From Candidatus Falkowbacteria bacterium (GTDB taxonomy: Bacteria; Patescibacteriota; Patescibacteriia; Patescibacteriales; UBA12465): a stretch of 64,000 nucleotides of DNA. The DNA lies in assembly GCA_016432645.1 (NCBI GenBank), contig CP066698.1, forward strand, positions 837,062 through 901,061, read 5' to 3'. Shown piece after piece: positions 3,401 to 44,877 of the stretch (the stretch's first letter is position 1; each line of letters opens with the position of its first letter). The translations under genes were made by a program, and so were the position numbers. The notes beneath the pieces are model-generated. The model did no database searches, was not told where the DNA came from, and worked only from the letters and a program-made list of their open reading frames with translations.

Positions 3401-6164
3401 TAAACGTACTGCTTCTACTAGCGATGATTCTTGCCGTGGCGGTTCCGGAACAAGTATTTCTGCTAATCCCGCTGATCCAAGTTTTGGTTACTGCGGTTAT
3501 TATAATTGTTTTAGTACAACTACTCCGCCAATCGGCGACCCAGCTACCTGTGCTTCTTCCACTCCCGTAAAAATTGGTGCCTATAAAGACGCCCCGACCT
3601 GTGTTGATGGTTGCGCCGCTAACCCCGGACAAGATTTTTGTTCATTATTCAATGGCAAAAAAGATGAATGTACTTTAGCCGCTTCTTGTTGTTTCGATCA
3701 GGCGACCGCTACTTGTAAAAGTGGTTCGCAAATTCCGAGCGGAGTTAATTTAGGATATTGTGCGTATTATGATTGTCAAGATATTAATGGCGTTAGTACT
3801 TGCGATCAAACCCCTAGAACTTCCGGTAAATTTAATAATTTAAATACTTGTTCTACTCGTTGCGGGAATGCCGAAGGCGGTGTTGGCCAGGATTGTGTTT
3901 CTCCATTGGCGACGGCTACTTGTAATCTTGGACTTTGTAATTTTCCTGGACATTCTTGTTTAACTGAAGCGGGGGCTAATGCCACCAGCGCCTCTGATTG
4001 CGGCGCCTGTTGTTGTAACCCGGCTGATCCGACTGCTTGTCAAACAGCAGAAGCGCCTGATTTATATTGTCAGCCTGATAAGGGAAATTGTAGCGGCGCT
4101 AGCCGGGGATTATGTTGCGGATGCAAAAATGATGGTGAGTGCGGCAATGCAGCCACCGTCGGGTGCGGCATTGATACTTGCTGCGATTCTCGTCCGGAAG
4201 TGACCGGTTCAGTCCCGGCAACCGGAGCTACTAATGTTTGCCGTAACTCAGTTATTAAAGTTACCTTTAATAAACAAATGGACGTCGCTTCCTTTAGCGC
4301 CAATACGTTACTAATGGAAGAAATGAACTATGGCGGCGCGGTTTGTCCGAGCGGCACGTTTGCTTATGAGGGTGATGGTAATTTTGTGGCCGTTAATCAA
4401 AACTGGTTTACTAATGTTTTTGCTAAATTCAAATCGTATGTTAGCCAGCTTTTTGGCAACCAGGCCCTGGCTGATTTACCGGATCAAAATAAATTATATT
4501 GTTCTTTCCAGGGCAGCATCTCGGGCGAGTATTCTGGCGAGGAAACTGTTTTAAGTTTTACGCCTAATAAATTGTTAACGCCTGATGCTAAATATTTTTT
4601 GATTGTTAAGGGGGATGAAGATTTAAATAGTCAATCAGGCGTTATTAGTTTAAGCGGTATTGGCTTAAACGGCGAAGGTCTGGATGGAGTTGAGGGCGCC
4701 TCTTTGAGCTTCAATAATAAAAATTATAAAAATTCTTATATTGTTCAATTTAAAACCCTATCTGATAAGGGCGCTAATTCTGGGGTCTGTGCTATCAGTC
4801 AAGTTAAAATCGCCCCTGAATCTTATTTATTCAATACAACTGAAAATAGCTTAGATGAAAATGACGCTAATTTTCAGGATAAAACTTTCGATACTAAGCG
4901 CGATAAGGATAAAGTCTTTAAGGCCTTAGCTTATAGCGCTGACGGACAGATAATCCAGCCGATTACTGGTTATTTTTGGGATTGGAAATTTAATTTGAGC
5001 GATGCGAGCGTCGCCACTATGGCTAGCATTGGACCAGATAAAGTTTTAGTAGCTGCTCGTGATGGTGTTACCGAGGGAGAAACAAAGCTATCCGCGACGA
5101 TTGATATGGTTAGATTTTTGGACAATAATTCTTCTGTTAATCCGGGTTGTGCTTGCGCGGATGAGGTTTGCTCCAGTAATTGCCGCAACGCTTTTTCTGC
5201 TGGCGATAATTTGAGTGGCAATGCCAATTTGTATGTCTTTATTTGTGCCAATCCTTGGCCGCCGGTAAACACTAATGGAACTTGGTATCCTTGGAGCGAT
5301 AACTGTACCAATTCTATTGGTGGAGCTTGCAACAACTTTAATTATAAATTCTATTATTGCCGCGATGCTGGAGCTCCGGGAACAGTTGATGATTTGCCGG
5401 CAATTATGGATAAAGCGGTAATTAGAGGACAGAGCGCGACTTTAATTTGCAGTTCTGATAATTCTTCCTGCGCCGGCTTGAATTCTGCCTGCGGCGCTGA
5501 TCAGAATGGCGACGGACGCCTAGATGGCATCTGTATTTGGAATGTTTTGAAAGAGTCATATTTTTTCCGTGAAGCTGGGATTAATGAAGCGGCGATTGAG
5601 ACGGTAACGGACACCGGAACCGGAGGCGATGTTACTGTTACTTGGTGGTCTGCTAACGCCCAAGCGGTTTCCTATAAAGTTTATTATGGTGAAAGCGGCA
5701 AAGCGCTTACTAAGTTTCAAGAATTTAAGATTAGCGATTACTGCGTACCAGTGACTGAGGCTTATAGCTGTACGGCTCATATTTCTTCGCTGAAGAATGG
5801 ACAGTCGTACGATTTCCGTTTAACAGCAATTTCGGCCAATAGAGTTGAGAGTGCGATGAGCGAGGTCGTTAGTGCCAAACCAACCGATCAAGCACCGCCG
5901 CAAGCGCCAATCGGCCTTAATGTCGCTGATGCTGGATCCGTTATCAAGTTTACCTGGCAAACTAATAATGCCTTATTTTATCGTATTTATCGCGGAGTGA
6001 AGAGCAATCTTTACGGCGAATCATATGATTCCGCTAATAATGCCTCCTCTTTATCTTGGGACAAAGCCAAACTTAGCTCCGGTAATAATTATTTTGCAAT
6101 TTCTGCTTTGGACAGTAATGGTAATGAAAGCGCTAAATCAGCAGAGATAATATTTTTTAAATAA
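453..6164 (+). CDS. Giant (1903 aa) membrane-anchored cysteine-rich cell-surface protein with a VirB2/TrbC-like pilin N-terminus plus IPT/TIG, Big_5-like and FN3 modules
   Basis: Uninterrupted ORF with a GTG start. The N-terminus has a signal-like segment followed by two hydrophobic helices around a short polar loop (GVIALGLIIYAGFLWMTSNGEEDKISQAKKIL...LAVILASWAIATFVINKL). Three IPT/TIG-like modules follow (PPVITDVSPLGG..., PFIISFSPTQGTAGQYVTITGSGFG..., ICKLEPKQGGVSTPVKVYGEYLG...). Next come very long Cys-rich tracts and an SbsA/Big_5-like module (PEVTGSVPATGATNVCRNSVIKVTFNKQMD). Two C-terminal FN3-like modules close the protein (VTVTWWSANAQAVSYKVYYG..., PIGLNVADAGSVIKFTWQT..YRIYRG). Confidence 0.85.
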   Translation: MKTKFNKKLFLLIVLVVGLFAWRLVFAQDFGTEAVNNGLNGALAGGDPREMVGRIINIALGFLGVIALGLIIYAGFLWMTSNGEEDKISQAKKILVSASIGLAVILASWAIATFVINKLSGAISGNGGNTICTNGQSSSCGCGGSMVCVNGSWGGCVGSDCSINPSQTSCDASPNPGCQIENNMCAPSDYCDSNCACQPKAGAGESCDADVSNATCDADNNMCAQYLSCDANTCTCFGPPVITDVSPLGGFCNENNNKACATDSDCATGCNLDTPNGTANNFLTISGKNFGEYAAGQSQVVFMGNSLNGRNPSEINPVCVNFWQDDQIIIAVPAGVASGSIKVVAKDGAEDITNDDYGPKIPDFVANSISRPGLCLISPNKGALSSSVSYQGINLYSGQAYFGNYQNNVQGLDSNFSHPSGLSGTAATPNIRSGESGSFVVNNISGNQERSNYLKFVKEADPNDGPFIISFSPTQGTAGQYVTITGSGFGGARGNSHVYFASAEANYSFPPVCASSVWGDKQVVVKVPDGLANGSYLIRMVVNGKTIDSQQLNPNVFRVDNSLSLKTSICKLEPKQGGVSTPVKVYGEYLGQVNRDALVQFNPAKQVYGVVAQDNGADIVPVNVPAESITGPVKVVKNGEWGNELNFEVSACSSDAECPGQVCCPGNTYKKGTCAVNLAACLIDIPTSVFEWNFNTGFVVNPNDPTESCSTLADYYGACQVNATCPNVPGACSPYAGGTKTTVANCDFSCASVTGCGVFGAPCTYDATLNKCVKDGSAGVCSLPKNQTFRINNQDISLSLTCNASGKWETKTNTSCPDGWVRGSNNICVDTSSSCGICAIGLSCAQLGSGGRCVSDTICPAGSVCENNPDISQPDSCVSVRGASCDCCCRIENSAQDCCAPLECKGTCGQDTTDDGAGFGSCSGCANVGTTVAEHDAACNCAGHGGQYCSITAQNPEGICTDCSGLVGLSSCSEHNAACCFDAKRTASTSDDSCRGGSGTSISANPADPSFGYCGYYNCFSTTTPPIGDPATCASSTPVKIGAYKDAPTCVDGCAANPGQDFCSLFNGKKDECTLAASCCFDQATATCKSGSQIPSGVNLGYCAYYDCQDINGVSTCDQTPRTSGKFNNLNTCSTRCGNAEGGVGQDCVSPLATATCNLGLCNFPGHSCLTEAGANATSASDCGACCCNPADPTACQTAEAPDLYCQPDKGNCSGASRGLCCGCKNDGECGNAATVGCGIDTCCDSRPEVTGSVPATGATNVCRNSVIKVTFNKQMDVASFSANTLLMEEMNYGGAVCPSGTFAYEGDGNFVAVNQNWFTNVFAKFKSYVSQLFGNQALADLPDQNKLYCSFQGSISGEYSGEETVLSFTPNKLLTPDAKYFLIVKGDEDLNSQSGVISLSGIGLNGEGLDGVEGASLSFNNKNYKNSYIVQFKTLSDKGANSGVCAISQVKIAPESYLFNTTENSLDENDANFQDKTFDTKRDKDKVFKALAYSADGQIIQPITGYFWDWKFNLSDASVATMASIGPDKVLVAARDGVTEGETKLSATIDMVRFLDNNSSVNPGCACADEVCSSNCRNAFSAGDNLSGNANLYVFICANPWPPVNTNGTWYPWSDNCTNSIGGACNNFNYKFYYCRDAGAPGTVDDLPAIMDKAVIRGQSATLICSSDNSSCAGLNSACGADQNGDGRLDGICIWNVLKESYFFREAGINEAAIETVTDTGTGGDVTVTWWSANAQAVSYKVYYGESGKALTKFQEFKISDYCVPVTEAYSCTAHISSLKNGQSYDFRLTAISANRVESAMSEVVSAKPTDQAPPQAPIGLNVADAGSVIKFTWQTNNALFYRIYRGVKSNLYGESYDSANNASSLSWDKAKLSSGNNYFAISALDSNGNESAKSAEIIFFK

Positions 6165-6180
6165 TAAAAATTAGGAAGTC

Positions 6181-9100
6181 ATGCTAAATGATAAGACTAT
6201 GAAAAACAAGCAAGTGCTAAGAACGAGCAGCTTATTCTTTATGCTTGGGGTTGTTTTTATTTATCTTTTGGCAGGGGCGGTATTTAAAGTTTCTGCCCAA
6301 GAGCAAAATAATGATGCTATCGGCGTCAGAATTATTCCTAACCCGAATCATTATAGCGTCTATCGCTGGTATGCGGCTCAAGGGTTTTCCGGTTCGCCGC
6401 AATCATTGACTGTTGATGGCTATGAAGCTTTGCGTGATGGGCGCACCGTTTATGTTAATGCCGCTAATGTTGATACTTTTGCTAAGGTTGTTTACACCAA
6501 TATTTATTTAATTTCCTATAATCAAGATTATAATGCTAAAACCGTAGATATTTTGGGGCAGTTAATTTCTCATTGGAAATTTAATGATAATTTGCCTTCC
6601 GAAACTTCTACTTGTTCAATTTCGGCCCTGAAGTGTGAGCAAGATGCTGATTGTGCTTCCAATCAATTCTGCTCTAATAATGATACTTGTGCGCTTAAAG
6701 AGCCCAAAAATTGCGCGGTGGATGAAGATTGTCCGGCGAGTTTTTTCTGCGGCAGCCTAAAAGCTAAAATCATCCGTGATTTAAAAAGAATCGGCAAACT
6801 AGAAGAAATTAAAGAAGCTTTGGCTAACTATAAAAAAGTTAATGGTCGTTATCCGCTTCTGAGCGCCGGAACTTATTTGTCTGGGAAAAGTGTTTCTTTG
6901 TGGCCAAGCTGGAATGATATTTTAATTCCTACGCTCGCCATCAAGCAAGCGTTAATCGACCCGATTAATCGTTTAGGCGCTTGTCCGGGATTTAATTCCA
7001 AAACTTGCTGGGATGATAGTAATAAAAAATTTGTTTATAATCCGGCCGGCGCTTATTTAAAATTACCAAAAGATAGTTACGCCTTGGTTTACGGGACTAA
7101 CGAAACTGGCTCTGATTACAATTTATGCGCTGTGCTTGAGACCCATTCCGATCCCAACTATACTTTTTCTCCCAATGACCCTGCTGCCAGCGCCTGCGTA
7201 TCTGATACCGGCATTCTCGCTTCGGGAAATAGTTCTAATTCTGCTCCGGTGATTACTAGCTTAGCGTTGAAGGGCGTTTCTGGTAATGAGTATAATGGGT
7301 TTGTGCAGGCAGTTGATGCCGATGGTGATTCGCTTACTTGGAGTTTACAGCCATTAGCCAGCTCCTGGCCTAATTGGCAGGGAGCGCCGCCAATTATCAA
7401 GGATACTAGCGATGCCAATCAAAAGAAAATTTTTGCCACTCGCGCCGGCAACGCTGGCGTCTATCCAATCGGCATCACGGTTTCAGACAGTAATGGTACT
7501 TCAGTTTCCACAACCACGCGGATTGAAATTAGTTCCTTGTCTTCAGCTGCTCAAGCTGAAGATTATACTTACCATTTAGATCCGACGGTGCCTTTTAATT
7601 ATAATTTTTATGTTTCCGGCGGCAGCAGCGCTCCTTCATTTGCTCTTATCCGAGTAAGCGGCCCGAATATTTTATCAATGCCGGGAATAACTAGAACGGC
7701 CAGTGCCGATGGGCTTAATCGCCAAAAAATAAATTATCAAGGCATTATTTCCACTACCCAGAAATTTACTGGCGATGTTGAGAGCCACTATCGGATACAA
7801 ATTGATAATGGCGCTGGCAATCCCGTAACTGACGATTTTATTATTAAAATAATTGTTGATAAGCCGGTATTAGATTTTAATTGCGCCAATCAATCACGTA
7901 TTAATTATGCCTATAAATGCAGCTTAGGTTCAACGGTTCAAGGCAATCACACCCTGACTTACGCTGTCACTTCAGCAATGCCTGCCGGGCTTAATCTTTC
8001 TGCTTCCAGCAATAACCAAAATATGGTTTATTTGGAAGGGAATACTGTGGCTGCCAGAGTCGGTCAAGAAGTAAAAGTTCAAGCGATTAATGAATATGGA
8101 ACCGCTACAGAAAAAAGTTTTATTTTAAATGTTAATACTTATTGCGGCGACGGGGTAATTGAAAAGCCTAATACCGAAGGCCGTGGCGGCGTTAGAAATG
8201 ATGGTCAAGAGGCTTGCGATGGCAGCGGTAATATTGCAACTAGTGCAGCTACTAGTAATAAAGATTTCCAATACGCTTGCAATACCACCTCAATCGCCTC
8301 CACCCCCTATCCGATTACCGGCAATAATTATTGTATCTTCAAGTCGCCCTTAGATGGCGGTGGTTTCTGCGGCGACACCTATTGCCAAACTAAATATGAA
8401 AATATAACCAATTGTCCCTTTGATTGTGATCCTAATTATTTTGGTACTGACCCGACTTTAAACGAGGGCAAAGAAGTTCCCCTTGATTGCAACAACGGTT
8501 TGTATTGTGATAAGGGATATGAATGTACTAGCTCCGGCGTTTGCCAGAAAAAATGCTGGGCGATTACCGAGAAAGACGCGCGAGTCGTCTCGGTAGCCGA
8601 GGGTGATGCAGTTTTAGCCAATAAAAACTATCAGACTTGGGTGGATCCTCATAAGCAGCCATTGTTTAATTTTACCAGCGCGCAGTTAAATAATAATTAT
8701 GTTGATGGTACTAAAATTTGCAGTAATTCTAATGAAGGAGTAAAAATTCCTAATCCTTTAAGTGATTGTAGCATAATCAAACTAGATAACACCCGATGTA
8801 TTAGCAAATGGGCTTCTGATGCCTCTAATGCCATTAAAGACTCTGCCGCTAAGTTTACTTATTGTCCGGTTGGATTTCAAAATAAATTAACCCCTTCAAG
8901 TGCCCGTTATTCAGGTCAATGCAAACAAGTCTGGACTGACTTGGGCGGTTGGAGAACGCGGATTCAATGGACTTGTACCGGTGACTTGGCAGCTAATCGG
9001 TGTTATCAAGACGAATGTCGAACTGCTGGCAGTACAGTATTGGATGGTTTGATGAATGAGGTTGGGCTTTGTGTTAAAAAACCGATTGTTACTCCGCCAC

Positions 9101-36543: not shown

Positions 36544-36614
36544 TCGGGGATCGTCTAATGGTAGGACTCCAGGTTTTGGTCCTGGCTATCGAGGTTCGAA
36601 TCCTTGTCCCCGAG
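36544..36614 (+). tRNA. tRNA-Gln (anticodon UUG), CCA not encoded
   Basis: Acceptor TCGGGGA/TCCCCGA, with the U1-A72 pair and G73 discriminator typical of bacterial tRNA-Gln. D arm GTCT-AATGGTA-GGAC, anticodon stem CCAGG/CCTGG with loop TTTTGGT, T arm CGAGG-TTCGAAT-CCTTG. Confidence 0.9.
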
Positions 36615-36656
36615 CAATACAAAAAAGAACAGATTAATCTGTTCTTTTTTGTATTG
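36615..36656. terminator. Perfect 42-nt palindrome / terminator directly after tRNA-Gln
   Basis: CAATACAAAAAAGAACAGATT (36615-36635) is the exact reverse complement of AATCTGTTCTTTTTTGTATTG (36636-36656). The arms contain A- and T-runs. Confidence 0.75.
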
Positions 36657-36670
36657 TTTGCGAAGCAAAG

Positions 36671-36824
36671 AGGGATTTGAACAGGTTGGAAGCGAGACGC
36701 GAGTTGAGGCGGAAGCCGAGACGAGCGGACGAGCGTCGAACGAAGCTCCGGGGGAGCTTCGGGTGCCAACCCAGGACAAGTGAGCCTCGCCCATTCCGGG
36801 GCGAGGCGAGGGCGATAAATCCCT
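36671..36824 (+). ncRNA. Candidate structured GC-rich RNA element (unclassified)
   Basis: Closing helix AGGGATTT (36671-36678) / AAATCCCT (36817-36824). Internal helices are GACGC (36696-36700) / GCGTC (36733-36737), which encloses GGC-GGAA-GCC (36708-36717); CGAAGCTCC (36741-36749) / GGAGCTTCG (36753-36761); and GCCTCGCC (36784-36791) / GGCGAGGC (36800-36807). One line spot-counts at about 67% GC. Strand and function are not established. Confidence 0.3.
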
Positions 36825-36880
36825 GTCCCCGAGCAAATAGACAAGAATACCACTTTCGTGGTATTTTTGTTATATAAATA
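36807..36880 (+). repeat. Repeat copy B: tRNA-Gln 3'-end-like core + hairpin + TATAAAT box
   Basis: CGAGGGCGATAAATCCCTGTCCCCGAGCAAATAGACAAGAATACCACTTTCGTGGTATTTTTGTTATATAAATA. The core aligns to the tRNA-Gln T arm and acceptor 3' strand (CGAGGTTCGAATCCTTGTCCCCGAGCAA). The hairpin is AATACCAC (36846-36853) / GTGGTATT (36858-36865). Confidence 0.8.
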
Positions 36881-36894
36881 TAAAGTTTAATTTT

Positions 36895-37176
36895 ATGAAG
36901 AAAAATGTTAAACATATTATAATTTTGGTTTTTTCTGGAATATTTTTATTAATTTCTCTATTTTCTTTAGCTATATCCATCTATCTTTTTACTGATTGTG
37001 GTGGGCATGGCTGTGGTTTGGCAACAATTTTTTCATATTTTACCACCCCCATTTTTATTTTATCTTTAATTCTGAGCTTTCTTACTTTTAATTCAAATAA
37101 ACGTTGGGCGTTAATGTCTTTAATGTTTGGTTTAGTTTTAATAGCCATAGTTATAATTAAACAGTTTTTTTTATAA
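36895..37176 (+). CDS. Small 3-TM membrane protein, function unknown (cassette 1)
   Basis: 93-aa ORF starting 14 nt after repeat B. It has three hydrophobic helices and is AT-rich. Confidence 0.55.
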   Translation: MKKNVKHIIILVFSGIFLLISLFSLAISIYLFTDCGGHGCGLATIFSYFTTPIFILSLILSFLTFNSNKRWALMSLMFGLVLIAIVIIKQFFL

Positions 37177-37183
37177 TAAAACC

Positions 37184-37245
37184 GTTCCAACTATATCCCA
37201 GTCTCCGAGCAAATACTTAAAATAGGCTTCTAAAGCCTATTTTTG
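37184..37245 (+). repeat. Repeat copy C: degenerate tRNA-Gln 3'-end-like core + hairpin terminator
   Basis: GTTCCAACTATATCCCAGTCTCCGAGCAAATAC followed by the hairpin ATAGGCTT (37222-37229) / AAGCCTAT (37233-37240) and a T-run. Confidence 0.7.
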
Positions 37246-38118: not shown

Positions 38119-38565
38119 ATGTCTATTGAAGAAAGGTTCAGGCCTTATGCCGCCGCTTATTTAGTTCTAATTAAAAACGATGAAGTTTTACTATTAAAAC
38201 GTTATAACACCGGGTATCAGGATGGTAACTATAGTTTAGTATCAGGGCATTTTGATGGCGGGGAAACGGCCGGACAGTGTATAGCGAGAGAGGCGCGGGA
38301 AGAAGCAAATATAATAATAACCCCTGAAGATTCAGAGGTGGTTCATGTGCTTCACAGATTTAGACCAGACCGCGAATATTTTGACGTTTATTTAAAAGTA
38401 AAGAAGTGGGCCGGAGAAATTACAAACCTGGAACCAAATAAATGCAGTGAATTAAAATGGTTTAAATTAAATGCCCTTCCTGAAAATATGGCTCCTGAAG
38501 TGAAACAGGCTCTGAATAAAATTAATGGTAATATATTTTTTAGTGAACTTGGTTGGGATGATTGA
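38119..38565 (+). CDS. Nudix hydrolase (cassette 3)
   Basis: Nudix box GHFDGGETAGQCIAREAREEANI (GX5EX7REUXEEXGU pattern). It starts 11 nt after repeat D. Confidence 0.85.
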   Translation: MSIEERFRPYAAAYLVLIKNDEVLLLKRYNTGYQDGNYSLVSGHFDGGETAGQCIAREAREEANIIITPEDSEVVHVLHRFRPDREYFDVYLKVKKWAGEITNLEPNKCSELKWFKLNALPENMAPEVKQALNKINGNIFFSELGWDD

Positions 38566-38585
38566 TTGTCCGTCATATTTAAACC

Positions 38586-38656
38586 TTTTCAGCCATATCC
38601 CTGTCTTCAATTAACGCAAAAAATAGGCTAATTTAGGCCTATTTTTTGTTATATTA
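38586..38656 (+). repeat. Repeat copy E: degenerate tRNA-Gln 3'-end-like core + hairpin
   Basis: TTTTCAGCCATATCCCTGTCTTCAATTAACGCAAAAAATAGGCTAATTTAGGCCTATTTTTTGTTATATTA. The hairpin is of the same AATAGGC...GCCTATT type as in copy C. Confidence 0.65.
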
Positions 38657-38685
38657 TTGACAAAATTATAATATTATGATATAAT
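38657..38685 (+). promoter_or_regulatory. Near-consensus sigma-70 promoter abutting repeat E
   Basis: -35 TTGACA (38657-38662), 17-nt spacer, and an extended -10 TGaTATAAT (38677-38685). Confidence 0.6.
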
Positions 38686-38716
38686 TTATTTATTAAAATG
38701 AACCTTCAAAAAATAT

Positions 38717-38926
38717 ATGGTTATGAAAAAGAAAATGTTATTCTGGCGAATTATGCTATGGGTTGATATTGTTGTAATGTTTTTCGGTCTAGTTTTTTCA
38801 GCGGTTTTGATGTTTGTAAAACATTTAAAAACTTTTTCTTTCCCGCTTTGGTTAGTCGCAGTAATATCAGTGCTTGGTATTATAACCGCTATTATAGCCA
38901 TTGATCGGACTGATCGGGAAATATAA
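38717..38926 (+). CDS. Small 2-TM membrane protein, function unknown (cassette 4)
   Basis: 69-aa ORF with two hydrophobic helices. It is flanked by a consensus promoter and a strong terminator. Confidence 0.5.
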   Translation: MVMKKKMLFWRIMLWVDIVVMFFGLVFSAVLMFVKHLKTFSFPLWLVAVISVLGIITAIIAIDRTDREI

Positions 38927-38946
38927 ATTTCCCAAACCTCTTTTAG

Positions 38947-38977
38947 CCAGTAGTTCTTTTTGAATTACTGGTTTTTT
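38947..38977 (+). terminator. Rho-independent terminator
   Basis: 10-bp stem CCAGTAGTTC (38947-38956) / GAATTACTGG (38962-38971) containing one G-U pair, loop TTTTT, T6 run. Confidence 0.8.
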
Positions 38978-39010
38978 ATTTATAAAATTATTTTAATATA
39001 TTATAAATCT

Positions 39011-39061
39011 CAGGTACATAGACAAAAATGTCATTTTCGTGGTATTTTTATTATATAAATA
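39011..39061 (+). repeat. Repeat copy F: hairpin + TATAAAT part of the repeat, with the tRNA-like core nearly erased
   Basis: CAGGTACATAGACAAAAATGTCATTTTCGTGGTATTTTTATTATATAAATA aligns with copies B and D from ATAGACAA onward. Confidence 0.6.
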
Positions 39062-39069
39062 GTAAAAAT

Positions 39070-39858
39070 ATGAATAATAAAAACATTATAATTAAAGCGA
39101 TGGTTGCTGTTTCTTATGTGGCTATGGTGGCGGTTAACTGGCTCGCCAACGCTTTGCCGATTAATAACCGTTCTACCGGGGCTATTTCCGATGCTTACCC
39201 TAATTTATTTGCCCCCGCAGGCTTAACTTTTTCCATTTGGGGTTTAATTTATCTACTCCTGGCCAGCTATTGTTTGTATCAATTTGGCCTTTTCCAAAAC
39301 GATAGAGGCCGGGGGAAAGCGGCTCTTTTTCAGAAAATCGGCCTCTATTTTATCTTAAGTTCGCTGGCTAACATTGCTTGGATTTTTTCCTGGCACTATG
39401 ATTTTATCGGGATATCAGTTGTACTGATGGCAGTGATTCTGTTTTCTTTAATCAAAATTGCCGATATTTTAAATAAAGAAAAGCTATTGTTAAAAGAAAA
39501 GTTTTTTATACGCGTTCCGTTTAGTGTTTATTTCGGTTGGATTACTGTGGCCGCCATCGCGAACATCACCGTATTTTTAGTAAGCATTAATTGGAATGGA
39601 TTTGGAATTTCTGACCAAGTTTGGACCATAATAGTTTTATTGGCCGGGCTATTAATCGTTATTCTAAGAATGATTAAGGATAAAAATGTTGCCTATGGCT
39701 TAGTTTTGGTTTGGGCTTACGCCGGCATTTTATTAAAACACTTATCAGCCGATGGCTTTTCCGGCCGCTACCAAGGAGTAATTATTACTACGGTTCTGTG
39801 TATTTTGGGATTTTTAATTAGCTTGGCAACTCTTATTAGCAAGAAAGCAAAATCATAA
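39070..39858 (+). CDS. Polytopic membrane protein, TspO/MBR-related (tentative)
   Basis: Multiple Trp-rich TM helices (ISDAYPNLFAPAGLTFSIWGLIYLLLA, NIAWIFSWHY, SVYFGWITVAAIANI). The start is moved to ATG 39070 because the track's ATG at 39028 lies inside repeat F. Confidence 0.45.
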   Translation: MNNKNIIIKAMVAVSYVAMVAVNWLANALPINNRSTGAISDAYPNLFAPAGLTFSIWGLIYLLLASYCLYQFGLFQNDRGRGKAALFQKIGLYFILSSLANIAWIFSWHYDFIGISVVLMAVILFSLIKIADILNKEKLLLKEKFFIRVPFSVYFGWITVAAIANITVFLVSINWNGFGISDQVWTIIVLLAGLLIVILRMIKDKNVAYGLVLVWAYAGILLKHLSADGFSGRYQGVIITTVLCILGFLISLATLISKKAKS

Positions 39859-39862
39859 AGAT

Positions 39863-40348
39863 ATGGATAGTTTTTATAATTTTACTGCCGAAAATGCGAA
39901 TGGCCAGGTGATTAAAATGTCCGATTACCGCGGTAAAGTGGTTTTAGTTGTTAATACGGCGAGCAAATGCGGTTTTACGAAGCAGTATGCCGGTCTGGAA
40001 AAGCTTTATCAAGATTATAAAAATAAAGATTTTGTTATTTTAGCCTTTCCTTGTAATCAGTTTGCCGGTCAAGAACCGGGGAGCGAGGCGGAGATTGTAT
40101 CTTTTTGCCAATTGAATTATGGTATTAGCTTCCCAATCTTTAAAAAAGTCAAAGTTAACGGCCAGGAGACACACCCTCTTTTTGTTTATTTAAAAAAGGA
40201 GCTCCCGGAAATTTTAGGCGGACGCATCAAGTGGAATTTTACCAAGTTTTTAATTGATAGCGCCGGTAGTCCCCTAAAGCGTTTTTCGCCAGCCACCACG
40301 CCGGAGGAAATCGAGAAGTATTTGCTTGCTAACAAAATTTTACAATAA
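39863..40348 (+). CDS. gpx: Glutathione peroxidase family protein (Cys type)
   Basis: Full-length match to family motifs: VVNTASKCGFTKQY, LAFPCNQFAGQEPG, KWNFTKFLI. Confidence 0.9.
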   Translation: MDSFYNFTAENANGQVIKMSDYRGKVVLVVNTASKCGFTKQYAGLEKLYQDYKNKDFVILAFPCNQFAGQEPGSEAEIVSFCQLNYGISFPIFKKVKVNGQETHPLFVYLKKELPEILGGRIKWNFTKFLIDSAGSPLKRFSPATTPEEIEKYLLANKILQ

Positions 40349-40370
40349 GCTTAATAATCAAAATAAATTT

Positions 40371-40778
40371 ATGACAGTGCTTAATTCTTTGAAGTTATAT
40401 CTAATAGCCGTCCCCATTTTTTTCATTATTGATTTAACCTGGCTTGGGGTAGTCGCTAAAGAGATATATCAAAAGCATATGGGGCACTTAATGAGACCAG
40501 CGCCAAATTGGCCAGTAGCAGTGCTATTTTATCTGCTCTTTATTATTGGTCTGCTTATCTTTGTTGTTTCGCCAGCCATGAAAAATAATTCCTGGTCATA
40601 TGCCCTTTTGTATGGTGCCTTGTTTGGTTTTTTTACCTATATGACTTTCGACTTAACAAGTTTAGCCGTTTTAAAAGATTGGCCCTGGAAAATAGTAGCC
40701 ATTGATATTATTTGGGGAATTGTTTTATCTTCATCGGTCTCTGTTGCCACTTATTTTATTGCTAAAAATATAATTTAA
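40371..40778 (+). CDS. DUF2177 family membrane protein
   Basis: Four TM helices with the characteristic FIIDLTWLGVVAK...Y and TYMTFDLTSLAVLKDWPW segments. The start is placed at ATG 40371. Confidence 0.75.
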   Translation: MTVLNSLKLYLIAVPIFFIIDLTWLGVVAKEIYQKHMGHLMRPAPNWPVAVLFYLLFIIGLLIFVVSPAMKNNSWSYALLYGALFGFFTYMTFDLTSLAVLKDWPWKIVAIDIIWGIVLSSSVSVATYFIAKNII

Positions 40779-40783
40779 TAAAT

Positions 40784-41548
40784 ATGAATCTCTTTTGGCT
40801 ACAAGTTATTACCATATTCATTTTTATTAATTTTTGTTTTGTTTTTGCAGTAATTAAAAAAAGAAATGATATTGCTGATGTCGCTTGGGGCTTAGGGTTT
40901 ATTTTAGTGGCTTTGGTTGGTTTATTTTTTAACCCAACAGTCAGAGTTTCCCTGATAACCTTAATGGTTATTTTTTGGGGAAGTCGTTTAGCATATCATA
41001 TTGGACGCCGATTTTTAAAAAGTAGCGAAGAAGATAAGCGCTATCAGAAAATGCGTTCTGGTTGGAAAGGTTCAGTGATATTTAATTCTTGGTTAAGAGT
41101 TTTTCTAATTCAGGGAGCCACCTTATTATTAGTAGCCGCGAGCATTATTATAGTGACCAATTTTGATAAGGGTGGGTTTATTTGGATTAATGTTATCGGG
41201 GTTGCCATCTGGTTGCTTGGTTTAAGTTTTGAAATTATTGGTGATCAGCAACTTAAAAAATTTCTTAATCAACCAGAAAATAAGGGCAGAATCATGACTA
41301 GCGGTTTATGGAAGTATACCCGTCATCCTAATTATTTTGGCGAAGCTGTGTTATGGTGGGGACTGTGGTTGGTGATTTGGGATGTGGATTATTTTTATCT
41401 TGGTTTAATTGGCCCAATTACTATAACTTTATTACTGCGTTTTGTTTCGGGGGTTCCTCTGGCTGAAGAGAGGTATAAAGAAAATATTGAATTTCAGGAA
41501 TATGCCGCCAAAACACCACCGATGTTACCGAACTTTTTTATTAAATAA
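40784..41548 (+). CDS. DUF1295 / steroid 5-alpha-reductase-like membrane protein
   Basis: Polytopic protein with the GLWKYTRHPNYFGEAVLWWG signature. Confidence 0.8.
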   Translation: MNLFWLQVITIFIFINFCFVFAVIKKRNDIADVAWGLGFILVALVGLFFNPTVRVSLITLMVIFWGSRLAYHIGRRFLKSSEEDKRYQKMRSGWKGSVIFNSWLRVFLIQGATLLLVAASIIIVTNFDKGGFIWINVIGVAIWLLGLSFEIIGDQQLKKFLNQPENKGRIMTSGLWKYTRHPNYFGEAVLWWGLWLVIWDVDYFYLGLIGPITITLLLRFVSGVPLAEERYKENIEFQEYAAKTPPMLPNFFIK

Positions 41549-41556
41549 TTTTTTAT

Positions 41557-42804
41557 ATGAAAAAGAAACTCGCCATTATTGGTTCCGGTATTTCCGCCAT
41601 GACTTGTGCACATTATTTGCGGGATGATTATGAAATTTCCATTTTTGATAGAAACGATTATTTAGGCGGACATACTCATACGCATGAGTTTGAAGATAAT
41701 GGCCATAAATTTACTATTGATACCGGTTTTATTGTTTTTAATCTTCATACTTATAACAATTTACTAAAGTTATTTGCCGAATTATGCGTGGAAAGACAAA
41801 AAAGCAGCATGTCATTCGCTGTTTATAATCAAAAAACAGGGCTGCAATATTCTGGCAGTAGTTTATTTCATCTTTTTTCTCAGCCCAAAAACTTGCTATC
41901 TCTTCAATATTGGAAATTTTTGTTTGAGATAAATAAGTTTTTTAAGATGGCGCTAGACGAGCGCGAATCTATTCAGGGGAGTGATGAAACTATTAGCCAG
42001 TATTGTAAGCGAAAAAATTTATCCAATTATTTTTTAGATAATTATTTAGCGCCGATGTCTTCGGCTGTTTGGTCAACTCCTCATCAGAGTGCTTATGATT
42101 TGCCAATATCTTTAATAATTCCATTTTTTTATAATCATGGTTTGTTGGGCGTTAATCGCCAGTTTCAATGGTATACCGTTAAGGGAGGCTCTAATGATTA
42201 TACTAAAAAGATTGTAGAAAATAGCAATTTTGCCATTCATTTACAAGAAGCCGCCTTGGAAGTTAAAGAGTCAGAAGCGGGAGTACAACTAATCACTGAG
42301 AAAGGCAGTTATAATTTTGATTATGCAATTTTAGCTAGTCATTCCGATGAGAGTTTAAAAATAGCCACTGAGCTTTCTGCTGTGAAAAAACAGTTATTAG
42401 AGAAGTTTAGTTATAGCCGAAATCGGGCTGTTTTACATACGGACATTTCAGTTATGCCTACGATTCGAAATGCCTGGGCCTCTTGGAATCATGTTATTAA
42501 CAAAGAGAGCGGGCAGTCTTCAACGGTTTATTGGATGAATGAGTTGCAGAAGCCAGATACAAAAACAAATTATTTTGTTTCCATCAACCCTTTTCAAGAA
42601 ATAGACAAAAATAAAATTGTAAAAGAGTTGATTTATGACCATCCCTTATTTACAGTTGAAAATTTTGCTTTACAGAAAAGACTTCAGGAATTAAATCAAA
42701 ACACTAAAATATTTTTTGCCGGAGCTTATTTTGGCTACGGTTTTCATGAGGATGGCATTAAGTCTGGTTTGCAAGTGGTTGAGATTTTAAAAAATAATAA
42801 ATAA
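41557..42804 (+). CDS. FAD/NAD-binding amine-oxidase/desaturase-like oxidoreductase
   Basis: N-terminal Rossmann motif KLAIIGSGISAMTCAHYL...IFDRNDYLGGHTHT. It occupies the conserved position ahead of the DUF1365 and CFA-synthase-like genes. Confidence 0.8.
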   Translation: MKKKLAIIGSGISAMTCAHYLRDDYEISIFDRNDYLGGHTHTHEFEDNGHKFTIDTGFIVFNLHTYNNLLKLFAELCVERQKSSMSFAVYNQKTGLQYSGSSLFHLFSQPKNLLSLQYWKFLFEINKFFKMALDERESIQGSDETISQYCKRKNLSNYFLDNYLAPMSSAVWSTPHQSAYDLPISLIIPFFYNHGLLGVNRQFQWYTVKGGSNDYTKKIVENSNFAIHLQEAALEVKESEAGVQLITEKGSYNFDYAILASHSDESLKIATELSAVKKQLLEKFSYSRNRAVLHTDISVMPTIRNAWASWNHVINKESGQSSTVYWMNELQKPDTKTNYFVSINPFQEIDKNKIVKELIYDHPLFTVENFALQKRLQELNQNTKIFFAGAYFGYGFHEDGIKSGLQVVEILKNNK

Positions 42805-42809
42805 AGCAG

Positions 42810-43652
42810 ATGAATTCTTGTATTTATACTTTAAAATTGATCCATGAACGTAAAGCGCCACGACGTAATTTTTTCAAATACGCAATTTACATGGCGTATA
42901 TAGATTTGGACGAGTTGGAGAGTATTTCTAAAAAAATATTTTTATTTGGTTATAATAAATGGAATGCACTTAGTTTTTTTGATAAAGATCATTTTAAGTT
43001 TGTTTTCCAGAAAAGCAAGAATGCGGAAATTATTGCCAGAGAAACTGTCAATTTTGAGGCGGACAAGTATATAAATAAGAATACCAAAGAACGTTTAAAG
43101 GTTTTAATTGAAGAGCTTCAGCTTGGTTTCAAATTAGATAAAGCTTATTTACTGACAAATTTGAGAAATTTCGGTTACATATTTACACCCGTAAGTTTTT
43201 ATTATTGTTTTGATGCGGCTGGTAAGTTTAGGGCGATGTTTAGTGAAGTTAATAATACTTTTGGCGACCAAAAAATGTATTATTGCAAAATCGACAATCC
43301 TGAAGCTGAACTATTTTCTGATACCCAGAAAAAAAATTATTACATTTCACCCTTTATTAACTATGATAACAATCTTCATTGGCAATTTAAAATTCCTGGG
43401 CCAAAGATTATGATGGCAATTGATTCTATTAAAGATGATAACGTAGAATTGCACACCGTGCTTACTGGGAATAGGAGAGAACTGAGTAATTTTAGTTTAG
43501 TATGGGCAATGCTAAGATATCCAATGGTGACTTTAACGGCAATCGCTCTTATCCATTATCAGGCCTTGAAGTTATTTATAAAAAAAATAAAATTTTATCG
43601 TAAAGATGAAGCTGACAATGAAATAATAAAAGCGATTAGCAATAAGAAGTAG
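42810..43652 (+). CDS. DUF1365 family protein
   Basis: The N-terminal signature IYTLKLIHERKAPRRNFFKYAIYMAYIDLDEL matches the Y.G.V.H.R..P..H.F.Y......DLDEL pattern. Confidence 0.8.
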   Translation: MNSCIYTLKLIHERKAPRRNFFKYAIYMAYIDLDELESISKKIFLFGYNKWNALSFFDKDHFKFVFQKSKNAEIIARETVNFEADKYINKNTKERLKVLIEELQLGFKLDKAYLLTNLRNFGYIFTPVSFYYCFDAAGKFRAMFSEVNNTFGDQKMYYCKIDNPEAELFSDTQKKNYYISPFINYDNNLHWQFKIPGPKIMMAIDSIKDDNVELHTVLTGNRRELSNFSLVWAMLRYPMVTLTAIALIHYQALKLFIKKIKFYRKDEADNEIIKAISNKK

Positions 43653-43659
43653 TAAAGAT

Positions 43660-44877
43660 ATGTATAAGGCAATATTTTTAACATTTTTTAAAAATAAAAA
43701 ATTTAGAGGCGCTTTAGAACTGGAGTTTGATAATTGCAAATATGTTTTTGGCGCAAAGCAGGCTGATGATAGTAATCAGGGCGACATTTATTCGGCAAGG
43801 ATTAAGGTAGTTAATATAAATTTTTTTAAGAGAGTGATTTTGTTTGGCGACACCGGCTTCGGAGAGGCTTTTTTATTTGGAGAGTTTACTACTCCTGATT
43901 TAAAGCGAGTTCTTTTATGGTTTGTGCAGAATAAAGAGTCGCTGCCTGGCTTCAGAGATAAAAATATTTTATCTATTTTATCGGTATTTACTAATCTGGG
44001 ATTAAAATTTGAACACTTGCGTAATAAAAATACTAAAACGGGAAGTAAAAATAATATTCGTGCTCATTACGATGTTTCAAATGATTTTTATCGATTGTGG
44101 CTGGATGAAACCATGACTTATTCTTCGGCGATTTTCAATAATTGTACAAGCCTGAAAGAGGGGCAAGAAAATAAATATCGTCGAATTTGTGAACAAATTA
44201 AGCTTAATGAAAGTGACCGAGTTTTAGAAATAGGTTGCGGCTGGGGCGGCTTTGCTGTTTTTGCTGCTAAAAATTACGGTTGCCACTTAACAATCACCAC
44301 TATTTCCGAGGAGCAATTTATTTATGTTGAGACGCTTATTAAGAAAGAAAATTTAGTTGATAAAATAAAACTAATTAAAAGCGATTATCGTGATTTAGAT
44401 GGCAATTTTGATAAGATTGTTTCCATAGAGATGATGGAGGCTCTTGGTTATGAATATGTTCCTCTATTTTTAAGTAAGTGCCAGAAATTAATTAAGCAAG
44501 ATGGCTTGATGTGTTTGCAGTGCATCATTTACCCTGATGAATATTTTCAAAGATATTTGCGCAATCCCAATTTTATTAAGAAATATATTTTTCCCGGGGG
44601 AGAGTTGCTGTCTTTAAAGCAAATTAAAGAAAAAACTTCTAGTTTGAATTTGGAGATTCTCGATATTCATTATATTGGTCAAGATTATGCCAGAACTTTG
44701 CATAAGTGGCGAGAAAATTTTATTGCCAGGGAGAAGGAAATCAAACAATTGGGGCTTGATGAATATTTTTACAGAAAATGGTTGTACTATTTTGTTTATT
44801 GCGAGGTTGGATTTGAGACCGATTATATTAACGACGTTCAAATTTTAATTAAGAAAAATATATGGTTATCGACATAG
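43660..44877 (+). CDS. Cyclopropane-fatty-acyl-phospholipid synthase-like SAM-dependent methyltransferase
   Basis: HYDVSNDFYRLWLDETMTYSSAIF, SAM motif VLEIGCGWGGFA, and IEMMEALG. Confidence 0.88.
   Translation: MYKAIFLTFFKNKKFRGALELEFDNCKYVFGAKQADDSNQGDIYSARIKVVNINFFKRVILFGDTGFGEAFLFGEFTTPDLKRVLLWFVQNKESLPGFRDKNILSILSVFTNLGLKFEHLRNKNTKTGSKNNIRAHYDVSNDFYRLWLDETMTYSSAIFNNCTSLKEGQENKYRRICEQIKLNESDRVLEIGCGWGGFAVFAAKNYGCHLTITTISEEQFIYVETLIKKENLVDKIKLIKSDYRDLDGNFDKIVSIEMMEALGYEYVPLFLSKCQKLIKQDGLMCLQCIIYPDEYFQRYLRNPNFIKKYIFPGGELLSLKQIKEKTSSLNLEILDIHYIGQDYARTLHKWRENFIAREKEIKQLGLDEYFYRKWLYYFVYCEVGFETDYINDVQILIKKNIWLST

Follow-up and report, generated by a model that had tools for sequence, protein, structure and literature searches.

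Integrative elements that target tRNA genes, such as tyrosine-integrase genomic islands and prophages, insert in the 3' part of the gene, are bounded by a direct repeat and can accumulate in tandem, as their integrase-less derivatives do (cis-mobilizable elements, CIMEs), and tandem attachment-site (att)-like repeats at tRNA genes commonly mark decayed islands. Folded nucleic acids serve other mobile elements: the bridge RNA of IS110 and the omega/reRNA of IS200/IS605 are guide RNAs encoded in transposon ends, and CTX-type elements use a folded single-stranded attP together with host recombinases. Here we describe a 219-bp unit behind a tRNA-Gln gene in a 64,000-nt stretch of Candidatus Falkowbacteria bacterium (assembly GCA_016432645.1, contig CP066698.1, positions 837,062 to 901,061; hereafter the window). 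Like a tRNA-site element, the unit has 17-nt repeats at both ends, leaves an intact tRNA and is found in empty and filled alleles, with a core at 12-14 of 80 related tRNA-Gln loci; unlike such an element, it is gene-less, and no integrase was seen inside it or within 4-10 kb. The comparisons below show that it is an insertion cassette, structured, non-coding and specific to tRNA 3' ends, for which close relatives are polymorphic. It belongs to an apparently undescribed family of ~160-nt gene-less folded cassettes behind tRNA genes of groundwater Patescibacteria.

The original prediction, made from the letters of the window, had pointed to a GC-rich and highly base-paired outlier, and both properties are borne out. 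The segment 36685-36834 has 66.7% G+C and is the top 150-nt peak of the window, about 4.4 standard deviations (sd) above the mean of 39.3% (sd 6.2%, 150-nt windows); its fold is treated below. Genes for FtsE and FtsX lie upstream of the tRNA-Gln gene. A search with FtsX returned 80 related loci with 55-98% identity, labelled Candidatus Falkowbacteria or Patescibacteria, and tRNA-Gln follows FtsX in 68 of these 80 genomes. L-numbered names are used for homologous or related loci, L002-L081 being the 80 retrieved with FtsX. The anchor and the parts of the unit in the window are as follows.

36544-36615, + strand: intact tRNA-Gln (UUG), anchor of the array (ARAGORN; Rfam tRNA model, 57.7 bits)
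36599-36615, + strand: proximal repeat, tRNA positions 58-74 (AATCCTTGTCCCCGAGC; direct-repeat family D1; pattern search)
36616-36834, + strand: whole insertion unit of 219 bp, comprising putative terminator, spacer, core and distal repeat (comparison with empty sites)
36615-36656, no strand assigned: perfect 21+21-nt palindrome with A-run and T-run (inverted repeat I1, 100% complementary)
36658-36668, + strand: mini-hairpin TTGC-GAA-GCAA with a GNA triloop, in the spacer (sequence)
36668-36833, + strand: structured GC-rich core (cmsearch with covariance model R1, 142.8 bits; covariation)
36671-36682, + strand: 5' end motif AGGGATTTGAAC, consensus xGGATTCGAAC, near-invariant in 86 copies
36818-36834, + strand: distal repeat, copy of tRNA 58-74 (AATCCCTGTCCCCGAGC), with one T/C difference from the proximal copy
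36838-36870, + strand: native tRNA trailer, pushed 3' by the insertion, a hairpin with promoter-like TAGACA-18-TATTTT (promoter scan)

The boundaries of the unit follow from empty sites (L016, L065, L077, L034 and L067), in which the tRNA directly abuts the sequence found after 36834 in the window. Close relatives differ in what they carry at this position. L004, with 91% FtsX identity, has no unit; L002 (98%) differs from the window in its terminator and has another core subfamily; and L003 (97%) has the terminator and spacer of the window together with a core of the other subfamily. In the window itself the tRNA 3'-end repeat occurs three times, at 36600-36616, 36819-36835 and 37195-37211 (the last with two mismatches), where a pattern search expects 0.11 matches by chance. 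The element had been thought to be isolated, and this view has to be given up, since it is part of a mobile 219-bp unit in a cassette array. Its 3' strand had been recognized as a tRNA-like repeat, which is correct: it is a copy of tRNA-Gln 58-74.

Across all units the order of parts is constant: a stretch that stops at C74 (the 3' end of a tRNA or else a tRNA-like junction), the palindrome, the spacer, xGGATTCGAAC, the GC-rich body, GAGGCGGAAATCC or GAGCGCGATAATCC, and then the remainder of the local tRNA 3' end. The core is ~155 nt long, with copies ranging from 151 to 186 nt. The palindrome begins 1-5 nt past C74 in nearly all of the 40 units listed, and its sequence differs among loci; that of the window looks like a bidirectional terminator delivered with the unit. 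Mini-hairpins of the C-GNA-G type seen in the window are present in many units and absent from some. The trailer hairpin with its promoter-like site follows the distal repeat in the window, L006, L010 and L014, and the same module is also found at cassette junctions in other loci. Its sigma-70-like promoter faces the next gene and reads TTGACA-17-TATACT in an empty site (L016 ~5064-5110); judging from its sequence, the module may terminate transcription of the tRNA and also initiate the transcript that follows.

Homologues were gathered from metagenome contigs by a scan with the 5' motif of the core, which gave at least 120 stretches. nhmmer found at least 126 matches in at least 102 loci, and covariance model R1, the E-values of which are rough, at least 107 matches in at least 84 loci, 98 of them distinct and almost all in Patescibacteria-type contexts. 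Neither viral contigs (two motif scans) nor phage and plasmid records (BLAST) hold a copy, and the 64-kb window has no further copy of the core by BLAST or model R1. With a profile of the core, related GC-rich elements are seen at the same position in a minority of the 80 loci, sometimes two or three in a row. Among the matches listed, copies lie 49-60 nt 3' of the nearest upstream tRNA, always on the tRNA strand, and the host tRNAs are Gln(UUG/CUG), Ser(GCU/GGA/UGA), Val, Asn, Asp and Ala. In every listed member with an adjacent tRNA, the last 17 nt are positions 58-74 (A58 to C74) of that tRNA.

The core is highly structured. On the + strand, the RNA fold has -77.7 kcal/mol, compared with -61.5 +/- 3.9 kcal/mol for dinucleotide shuffles (z = -4.17; 0 of 200 as good), while the - strand gives z = -2.1. 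With DNA energy parameters z is -2.5, and P0, P1, P3 and P4 of the following helices are also obtained.

36671-36678 (AGGGATTT) / 36817-36824 (AAATCCCT), + strand: closing helix P0, 89-92% paired in the family
36684-36689 / 36766-36771, + strand: P1, GGTTGG / CCAACC, 6 of 6 pairs changed on both sides, 93-94% paired
36692-36734, + strand: P2, with conserved GC/GC clamp, lower stem, tandem G.A and apex GGC-GGAA-GCC (36708-36717), 12 of 13 pairs changed on both sides
36737-36749 / 36753-36765, + strand: P3, 13-bp interrupted hairpin with GGG loop, its apical 9 bp being CGAAGCTCC/GGAGCTTCG (36741-36761)
36784-36792 / 36799-36807, + strand: P4, 9-bp hairpin GCCTCGCCC / GGGCGAGGC, 7 of 8 pairs changed on both sides

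P0 is built from an inverted T-loop-like 5' end and a T-loop-derived 3' end, and encloses P1-P4. The motif xGGATTCGAAC is an inverted copy (reverse complement) of the universal T-loop/T-stem sequence, its first 8 nt forming the 5' strand of P0, and the 3' strand, AAATCCCT, overlaps the distal repeat. P0 covaries: the nucleotide just 5' of GGATT is paired to the one behind AATCC as GC in 53 cases, UA in 8 and AU in 6, and a 5' arm agrees more closely with the 3' arm of the same copy than with permuted ones (4.83 vs 4.30 +/- 0.08). In a MAFFT alignment of 86 copies, the five-helix structure is 83.8% paired, compared with 34-43% when the 3' partners are slid, and its covariation score is 0.437 against at most 0.112 for the slid controls, with 0 of 500 shuffles reaching the observed values. 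A trimmed alignment gives 81.7% paired and a covariation of 0.455. The covariance-model (CM) alignment gives 86.6% paired (slid controls 31-38%), a covariation of 0.488 and 38 of 43 pairs changed on both sides, including 10 of 10 in P3, the main stem of which is 98% paired. Across alignments, 32-38 pairs are changed on both sides and the slid-control covariation is at most 0.14 overall. A search for homologues and covariation had been named beforehand as the test that could refute the element; it returned about 100 homologues with abundant compensatory changes. All helices listed at the outset, including GCCTCGCC/GGCGAGGC at 36784-36807, are found where they had been placed, and four of the five are conserved with compensatory changes. 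The fifth, GACGC 36696-36700 / GCGTC 36733-36737, is dropped as a family helix because it is specific to the window copy, the family pairing in another register.

These data leave little room for the view that the patch is a functionless scar, either a decayed island remnant or GC-rich foreign DNA between two att sites. Such a scar would have no gene, no promoter and tandem att-like repeats at a tRNA, and all three are seen here. Nevertheless, about 100 distinct copies keep five helices via compensatory changes, together with the junction nucleotides and a size of 151-186 nt, and there is neither phage or plasmid similarity nor a coding signal; a scar is accordingly very improbable. A fragment of a foreign GC-rich gene in particular is at odds with the lack of frame conservation and is contradicted by the covariation. 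Copy lengths modulo 3 are evenly spread (32/31/25) and no + strand frame stays open in the core. Open reading frames (ORFs) do overlap the patch, three in the - and two to three in the + orientation; they are artefacts, as had been proposed, because the lengths are even modulo 3 and no open + strand frame is kept.

The original prediction had also compared the element to a tRNA T arm with its loop expanded by ~140 nt. P0 indeed joins a T-stem-like 5' strand to the T-stem 3' strand of the repeat, and the acceptor 3' strand comes next. On the other hand, the acceptor 5' strand, the D arm and the anticodon arm are all missing, other nucleotides stand in place of T-loop positions 54-57 at the 3' end, and the tRNA-like part varies with the neighbouring tRNA while the core is constant. 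ARAGORN in standard, intron, relaxed and tmRNA modes finds only tRNA-Gln, and cmscan at E <= 10 finds no tRNA or tmRNA match at 36616-36840. A tRNA-like RNA is thus hardly credible; the T-arm look arises because tRNA 58-74 is duplicated at the 3' end and an inverted T-loop copy, GGGATT(C/T)GAAC, stands at the 5' end. That the element matches no known RNA family stands: a scan with Rfam 15, which covers SRP RNA, RNase P, 6S RNA, riboswitches, ribozymes, group I/II introns, IS605-orfB and HEARO among others, gives nothing at gathering score in the patch, the sub-threshold matches at E <= 10 lie on the tRNA and terminator or on the repeat and trailer with none within the GC-rich body, and on 14 other loci with ~20 copies only tRNAs pass the gathering threshold.

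Two further ideas were considered and rejected. Pairing of the P3 loop with the acceptor-strand repeat is not sustained by inspection of the alignment, since the loop stays GGG at tRNA-Ser sites with a different acceptor strand. That the spacer derives by decay from an inverted copy of the acceptor strand nearby is likewise not supported (4.76 vs 4.68 +/- 0.08 matches).

G.U pairs outnumber A.C by 95 to 44, which points to the tRNA-sense (+) strand as the folding strand. This bias is what would be expected if the core were a gene for a stable structured RNA with its own function (for instance protein-binding, regulatory or guide-like), transcribed by read-through from the strong tRNA promoter, ended at the hairpin past the distal repeat, and mobile by riding cassettes. 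The multi-helix fold with conserved unpaired joints, the GGAA tetraloop, the tandem G.A and the conserved GGG loop point in the same direction, as do the z score with RNA parameters (-4.2), which is stronger than that with DNA parameters (-2.5), the constant co-orientation of the core close behind a tRNA, and the high G+C in an A+T-rich genome, which is typical of structured RNAs. Such a gene is harder to reconcile with the position of the core behind a perfect palindrome that appears to terminate transcription in both directions. No -10/-35 pair is found between this palindrome and the core in the window, nor at a fixed distance across 86 units. Moreover, variants without three of the four internal helices persist at the same position, the core is present in only ~15% of related genomes, and no Rfam family matches. 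An RNA gene is a serious possibility, but on balance we doubt it.

The core also behaves as a unit separate from its flanks. The cores of L157, at tRNA-Gln, and L090, at tRNA-Ser, are 97% identical, those of L185 (Gln-type repeat) and L110 (Ser-type repeat) 95%, and the nearest relative of the window core among the matches listed (90% identical) lies at a Ser-type repeat. In such pairs identity starts at xGGATTCGAAC and stops at GGAAATCC, and both sides differ outside it, in terminator and spacer to the left and in the repeat to the right. These shared cores with differing flanks, together with P3 versions that are distributed across core subfamilies, imply that the core is a discrete module, exchanged or moved alone. 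Mini variants (twice in L050, once in L074) keep both ends and one hairpin, three of the four internal helices being gone, and L050 has two identical units with unlike left and right repeats.

Other observations touch on the variability of the core. In L010, three near-identical units (5119-5282, 5338-5501 and 6147-6308) differ in the P3 stem by ~10 fully compensated substitutions; the same P3 versions recur in other core subfamilies, which suggests hairpin swapping. A perfect 20-nt palindrome, CCTGCCTGCCGGCAGGCAGG, is nested in or beside ten copies, in the P2 loop or splitting the tRNA-like repeat (L028 5259-5278, L090 4141-4160, L109 563-582, L118 6287-6306, L135 9918-9937, L139 3652-3671, L141 1159-1178, L174 6516-6535, L187 2619-2638 and L188 4114-4133). 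It looks like a tiny secondary insertion and is absent from the window. Other GC-rich sequences stand behind a similar terminator and a CGCC-GNA-GGCG mini-hairpin in L038 (~5795-5900), L032 (~5069-5170) and L064 (~5028-5130), and these may be further core families at the same tRNA-Gln landing site. The periodic GC peaks of L071 were set aside as a GC-rich coding gene unrelated to the core.

The match between repeat and local tRNA bears on another mechanism, in which a transposon-like element recognizes the T-loop and makes 17-bp staggered cuts, so that the repeat of positions 58-74 is a target-site duplication, as with casposase or CRISPR Cas1. For each of the six tRNA identities the repeat spans A58 to C74 and matches the local tRNA; cores that are 95-97% identical at different tRNAs are easily explained by a repeat copied from the target, and with difficulty by one that the element brings along; and the placement of the newest unit next to the tRNA resembles leader-proximal insertion. 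A duplication of this kind does not readily explain why the terminator and spacer differ strongly around near-identical cores, the whole inter-repeat segment not being shared, nor the identical units with different repeats in L050, nor the T-stem variant, foreign to the host tRNA, in the distal repeats of the window and L098. No Cas1-family gene recurs near the copies, and we know of no transposase outside the Cas1 family that gives 17-bp duplications. We consider target-site duplication unlikely.

To find a partner gene, 524 ORFs within 4 kb of copies were clustered, and the sole recurrent ones are the FtsX, FtsE, peptidase and FtsB-like genes upstream. The Pfam families of neighbours include NUDIX, APH, AbiEii-type ATPase, Fic, ResIII and radical SAM, and serine recombinases make up two further clusters. 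An integrase, transposase or reverse transcriptase that recurs was not found with Pfam, nor is a Phage_integrase-type family listed, among 146 neighbour representatives, 10 downstream ORFs of the window and 10 ORFs of the L189 island, the listing being of 25 families, so that a lone integrase may escape it, and a second batch of 135 neighbour proteins lying outside the scan. Because no gene family except the FtsE/FtsX synteny recurs within 4 kb, and because there is no coding signal, the unit is non-autonomous. A 557-aa serine recombinase with a Resolvase domain is encoded in L088 (6823-8493) and two other loci, 2-3 kb from arrays; with three loci, it is too rare for a general partner.

We favour, with about even confidence, the reading that the unit is a non-autonomous tRNA-site-specific mobile cassette, the folded core of which would be a cis-acting recognition module mobilised in trans by a site-specific recombinase, by analogy with known elements. 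A recombinase encoded elsewhere would insert, excise and exchange the unit. Strands would be swapped within the tRNA 58-74 segment, as in tRNA-targeting integrative elements, so that the tRNA would stay intact and a repeat would be left at the far end. The enzyme would recognise the core in its folded state together with the T-loop-like ends, probably in single-stranded form, and the unit would supply a replacement tRNA trailer consisting of the palindromic bidirectional terminator and a short spacer. Successive events at one site could then build arrays of cores alternating with single-gene cassettes that share the repeat. If recombination is conservative, the empty allele would be the tRNA joined to 36835, and the circle junction would be ...GGCGATAA joined to ATCC...GAGC-AATAC.... 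The kind of enzyme, the crossover position, the cis action of the core and the folded form, DNA or RNA, are points that we infer.

We read the unit as mobilised because of its tRNA-repeat signature, the terminator that it supplies, the lack of a promoter, the mini variants and the helices recovered with DNA parameters. A role of the core in cis is preferred to a role as a product because there is no conserved promoter, because mini variants exist and the 20-nt palindrome is tolerated, and because DNA parameters give P0, P1, P3 and P4.

Several points weigh against this cassette reading. With its five helices, its GNRA-type loop, its tandem G.A motifs and the conserved nucleotides at its junctions, the ~150-nt core looks like a functional RNA, and it is more elaborate than any recombination site known to us. 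A tRNA 3' end carried in the manner of attP should break the new tRNA when the element moves between tRNAs, and yet near-identical cores stand behind tRNAs for Gln and for Ser, each with a repeat that is entirely the local one; exchange of modules between units, or target-derived duplication, is therefore needed. Neither in cis nor in trans was a recombinase identified in the neighbourhoods of the copies, so that the enzymology rests on analogy. As to the sample, it was fished with the 5' motif, the conservation of which is partly by construction, and CM alignments lean to the model structure, although the MAFFT-only counts agree.

The relation of both ends to the T arm allows yet another interpretation, namely that the core is a programmable guide, as RNA or folded single-stranded DNA, steering a recombinase encoded elsewhere to the tRNA T-arm region. 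The antisense 5' end and the sense tRNA 58-74 3' end would pair with the two strands of that region. If true, this would explain how one core serves at many tRNA species and how cassette arrays form without a neighbouring integrase, and it would constitute a new programmable insertion system, analogous to the IS110 bridge RNAs but unrelated in sequence. A guide seems to us improbable. If, as in the favoured cassette reading, the core is a handle for a host or helper enzyme, it shows how very small genomes trade accessory genes.

The unit forms part of a cassette array. Units occur in tandem in L010, L155 and L014, and cores are interleaved with single-gene cassettes, which close with a tRNA-like junction made up of CCGTTCCAACTATATCCCAG and then TCCCCGAGC. 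The next cassette in the window carries a gene.

36895-37176, + strand: 93-aa predicted membrane ORF of the next (gene-carrying) cassette (ORF list)
37182-37210, + strand: tRNA-3'-like junction closing the ORF cassette (CCGTTCCAACTATATCCCAG|TCTCCGAGC), third member of repeat family D1
37219-37243, + strand: intrinsic terminator after the ORF cassette (terminator scan)

The 93-aa ORF has no Pfam family above cut-off. Junctions of the same kind lie in L006 (6239 and 7908), L010 (6084), L108, L098 (2086), L155 (9187), L050 (7300) and L088 (11600 and 14095). The junction consists of a T arm, in which CAACTATA stands in place of the loop, and an acceptor 3' strand; it could represent a footprint or another type of recombination site. 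An 8.5-kb island of biosynthetic-type genes, with no recombinase among them, lies between two cores in L189. Downstream of the array, the accessory genes at 38119-44877 of the window encode NUDIX, glutathione peroxidase, DUF2177, DUF1295, amine oxidase, DUF1365 and cyclopropane-fatty-acid synthase. A partial duplicate of the 5' part of tRNA-Gln lies just upstream of the intact gene in L014 (4950-5020) and carries a ~37-nt GC-rich palindromic insert in the D-loop region.

The motif marks a hypervariable site of Patescibacteria, at which single-gene cassettes and small islands pile up behind tRNA genes with no integrase seen. Its content is systematically under-sampled, as about one third of the assemblies break here: 21 contigs end at most 400 nt past tRNA-Gln and 8 more inside or before the tRNA (29 of 80 in total, around locus position 4950-5300 in L002-L081), making the locus a frequent assembly breakpoint. 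A Logan contig with an identical FtsX (run SRR12113407) also stops inside tRNA-Gln. With about 100 distinct copies and compensatory changes at 38 of 43 pairs, the core is a well-supported structured motif that is absent from Rfam 15, and its covariance model is usable for annotating loci and for finding the partner enzyme by co-occurrence. In searchable full-text literature no description of the motif was found. The group I introns at tRNA position 35/36 (PMC13011429) are different from the cassette, and a further report (PMC11109978) holds no motif that is linked to tRNAs or to the candidate phyla radiation (CPR).

Among described systems, the unit resembles tRNA-targeting integrative elements and CIMEs, with which it shares 3' tRNA insertion, a ~17-bp repeat from the T-loop to the 3' end, a tRNA restored with a new terminator, tandem accretion, and presence or absence among close relatives. 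It departs from them in that the core serves at least seven tRNA species. To our knowledge, tRNA-targeting integrative elements do not hold a 150-nt core with a conserved single-strand fold.

The resemblance to phages of the CTX type lies in the lack of an own recombinase, in tandem arrays at one chromosomal site, and in folded-strand ends that imitate a duplex target, P0 matching tRNA 58-63 while 54-57 are mismatched as an unpaired central stretch. The target of the cassette, in contrast, is the tRNA T arm and acceptor rather than dif, and there are no phage genes.

With MITEs (miniature transposable elements with inverted repeats) and REPINs (paired repetitive extragenic palindromic sequences), the unit shares a size below 300 bp, the non-coding character, short inverted ends (xGGATT...AATCCx), mini variants that keep the ends, and the presumed action of an enzyme in trans. 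Unlike MITEs, the cassettes occur only 3' of tRNA genes or tRNA-like junctions and in one orientation, with one copy in 64 kb; the 17-bp tRNA repeat lies ~55 nt to the left of the left inverted end instead of abutting it; and the internal fold is under strong selection.

Transposon guide RNAs (IS110 bridge RNA, IS200/IS605 omega/reRNA) are similarly structured non-coding edge segments of 150-200 nt with ends related to the target. Here, no IS110, TnpA, TnpB or IscB family recurs by the copies (524 ORFs clustered; Pfam), and the cassette has neither an IS605-related or HEARO match in Rfam nor a promoter. Furthermore, the intact tRNA keeps the "target", so that a nuclease guide would be self-targeting. 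A retron non-coding RNA was also considered, and no reverse transcriptase is found downstream in the window, where the 93-aa membrane ORF lies, nor in the families listed for the 146 neighbour representatives.

The arrangement of the locus, finally, recalls integron cassettes with their attC sites and clusters of attC sites lacking integron-integrases (CALINs; PMC4889954). Both have small, mostly single-gene cassettes at a fixed anchor, related end sequences, gene-less cassettes and arrays without a neighbouring integrase, and in both a folded single strand with paired ends is a plausible active form. The anchor, however, is tRNA-Gln after FtsE/FtsX and not attI/intI in the locus searched, the repeat is a tRNA 3' end and not a GTTRRRY core, and the cassette ends are xGGATTCGAAC ... 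GCGGAAATCCx and not RYYYAAC ... GTTRRRY, when compared by sequence. The core is a five-helix junction of ~60% G+C rather than a simple imperfect palindrome, and gene cassettes of these arrays are closed by a short tRNA-like junction that has no GC-rich core. Taken as a whole, the unit fails the defining tests of tRNA-site elements, integrons, MITEs and transposon guide RNAs; in behaviour it is akin to a tRNA-site integrative element that is minimal and lacks an integrase, and its locus to an integron-type cassette array.

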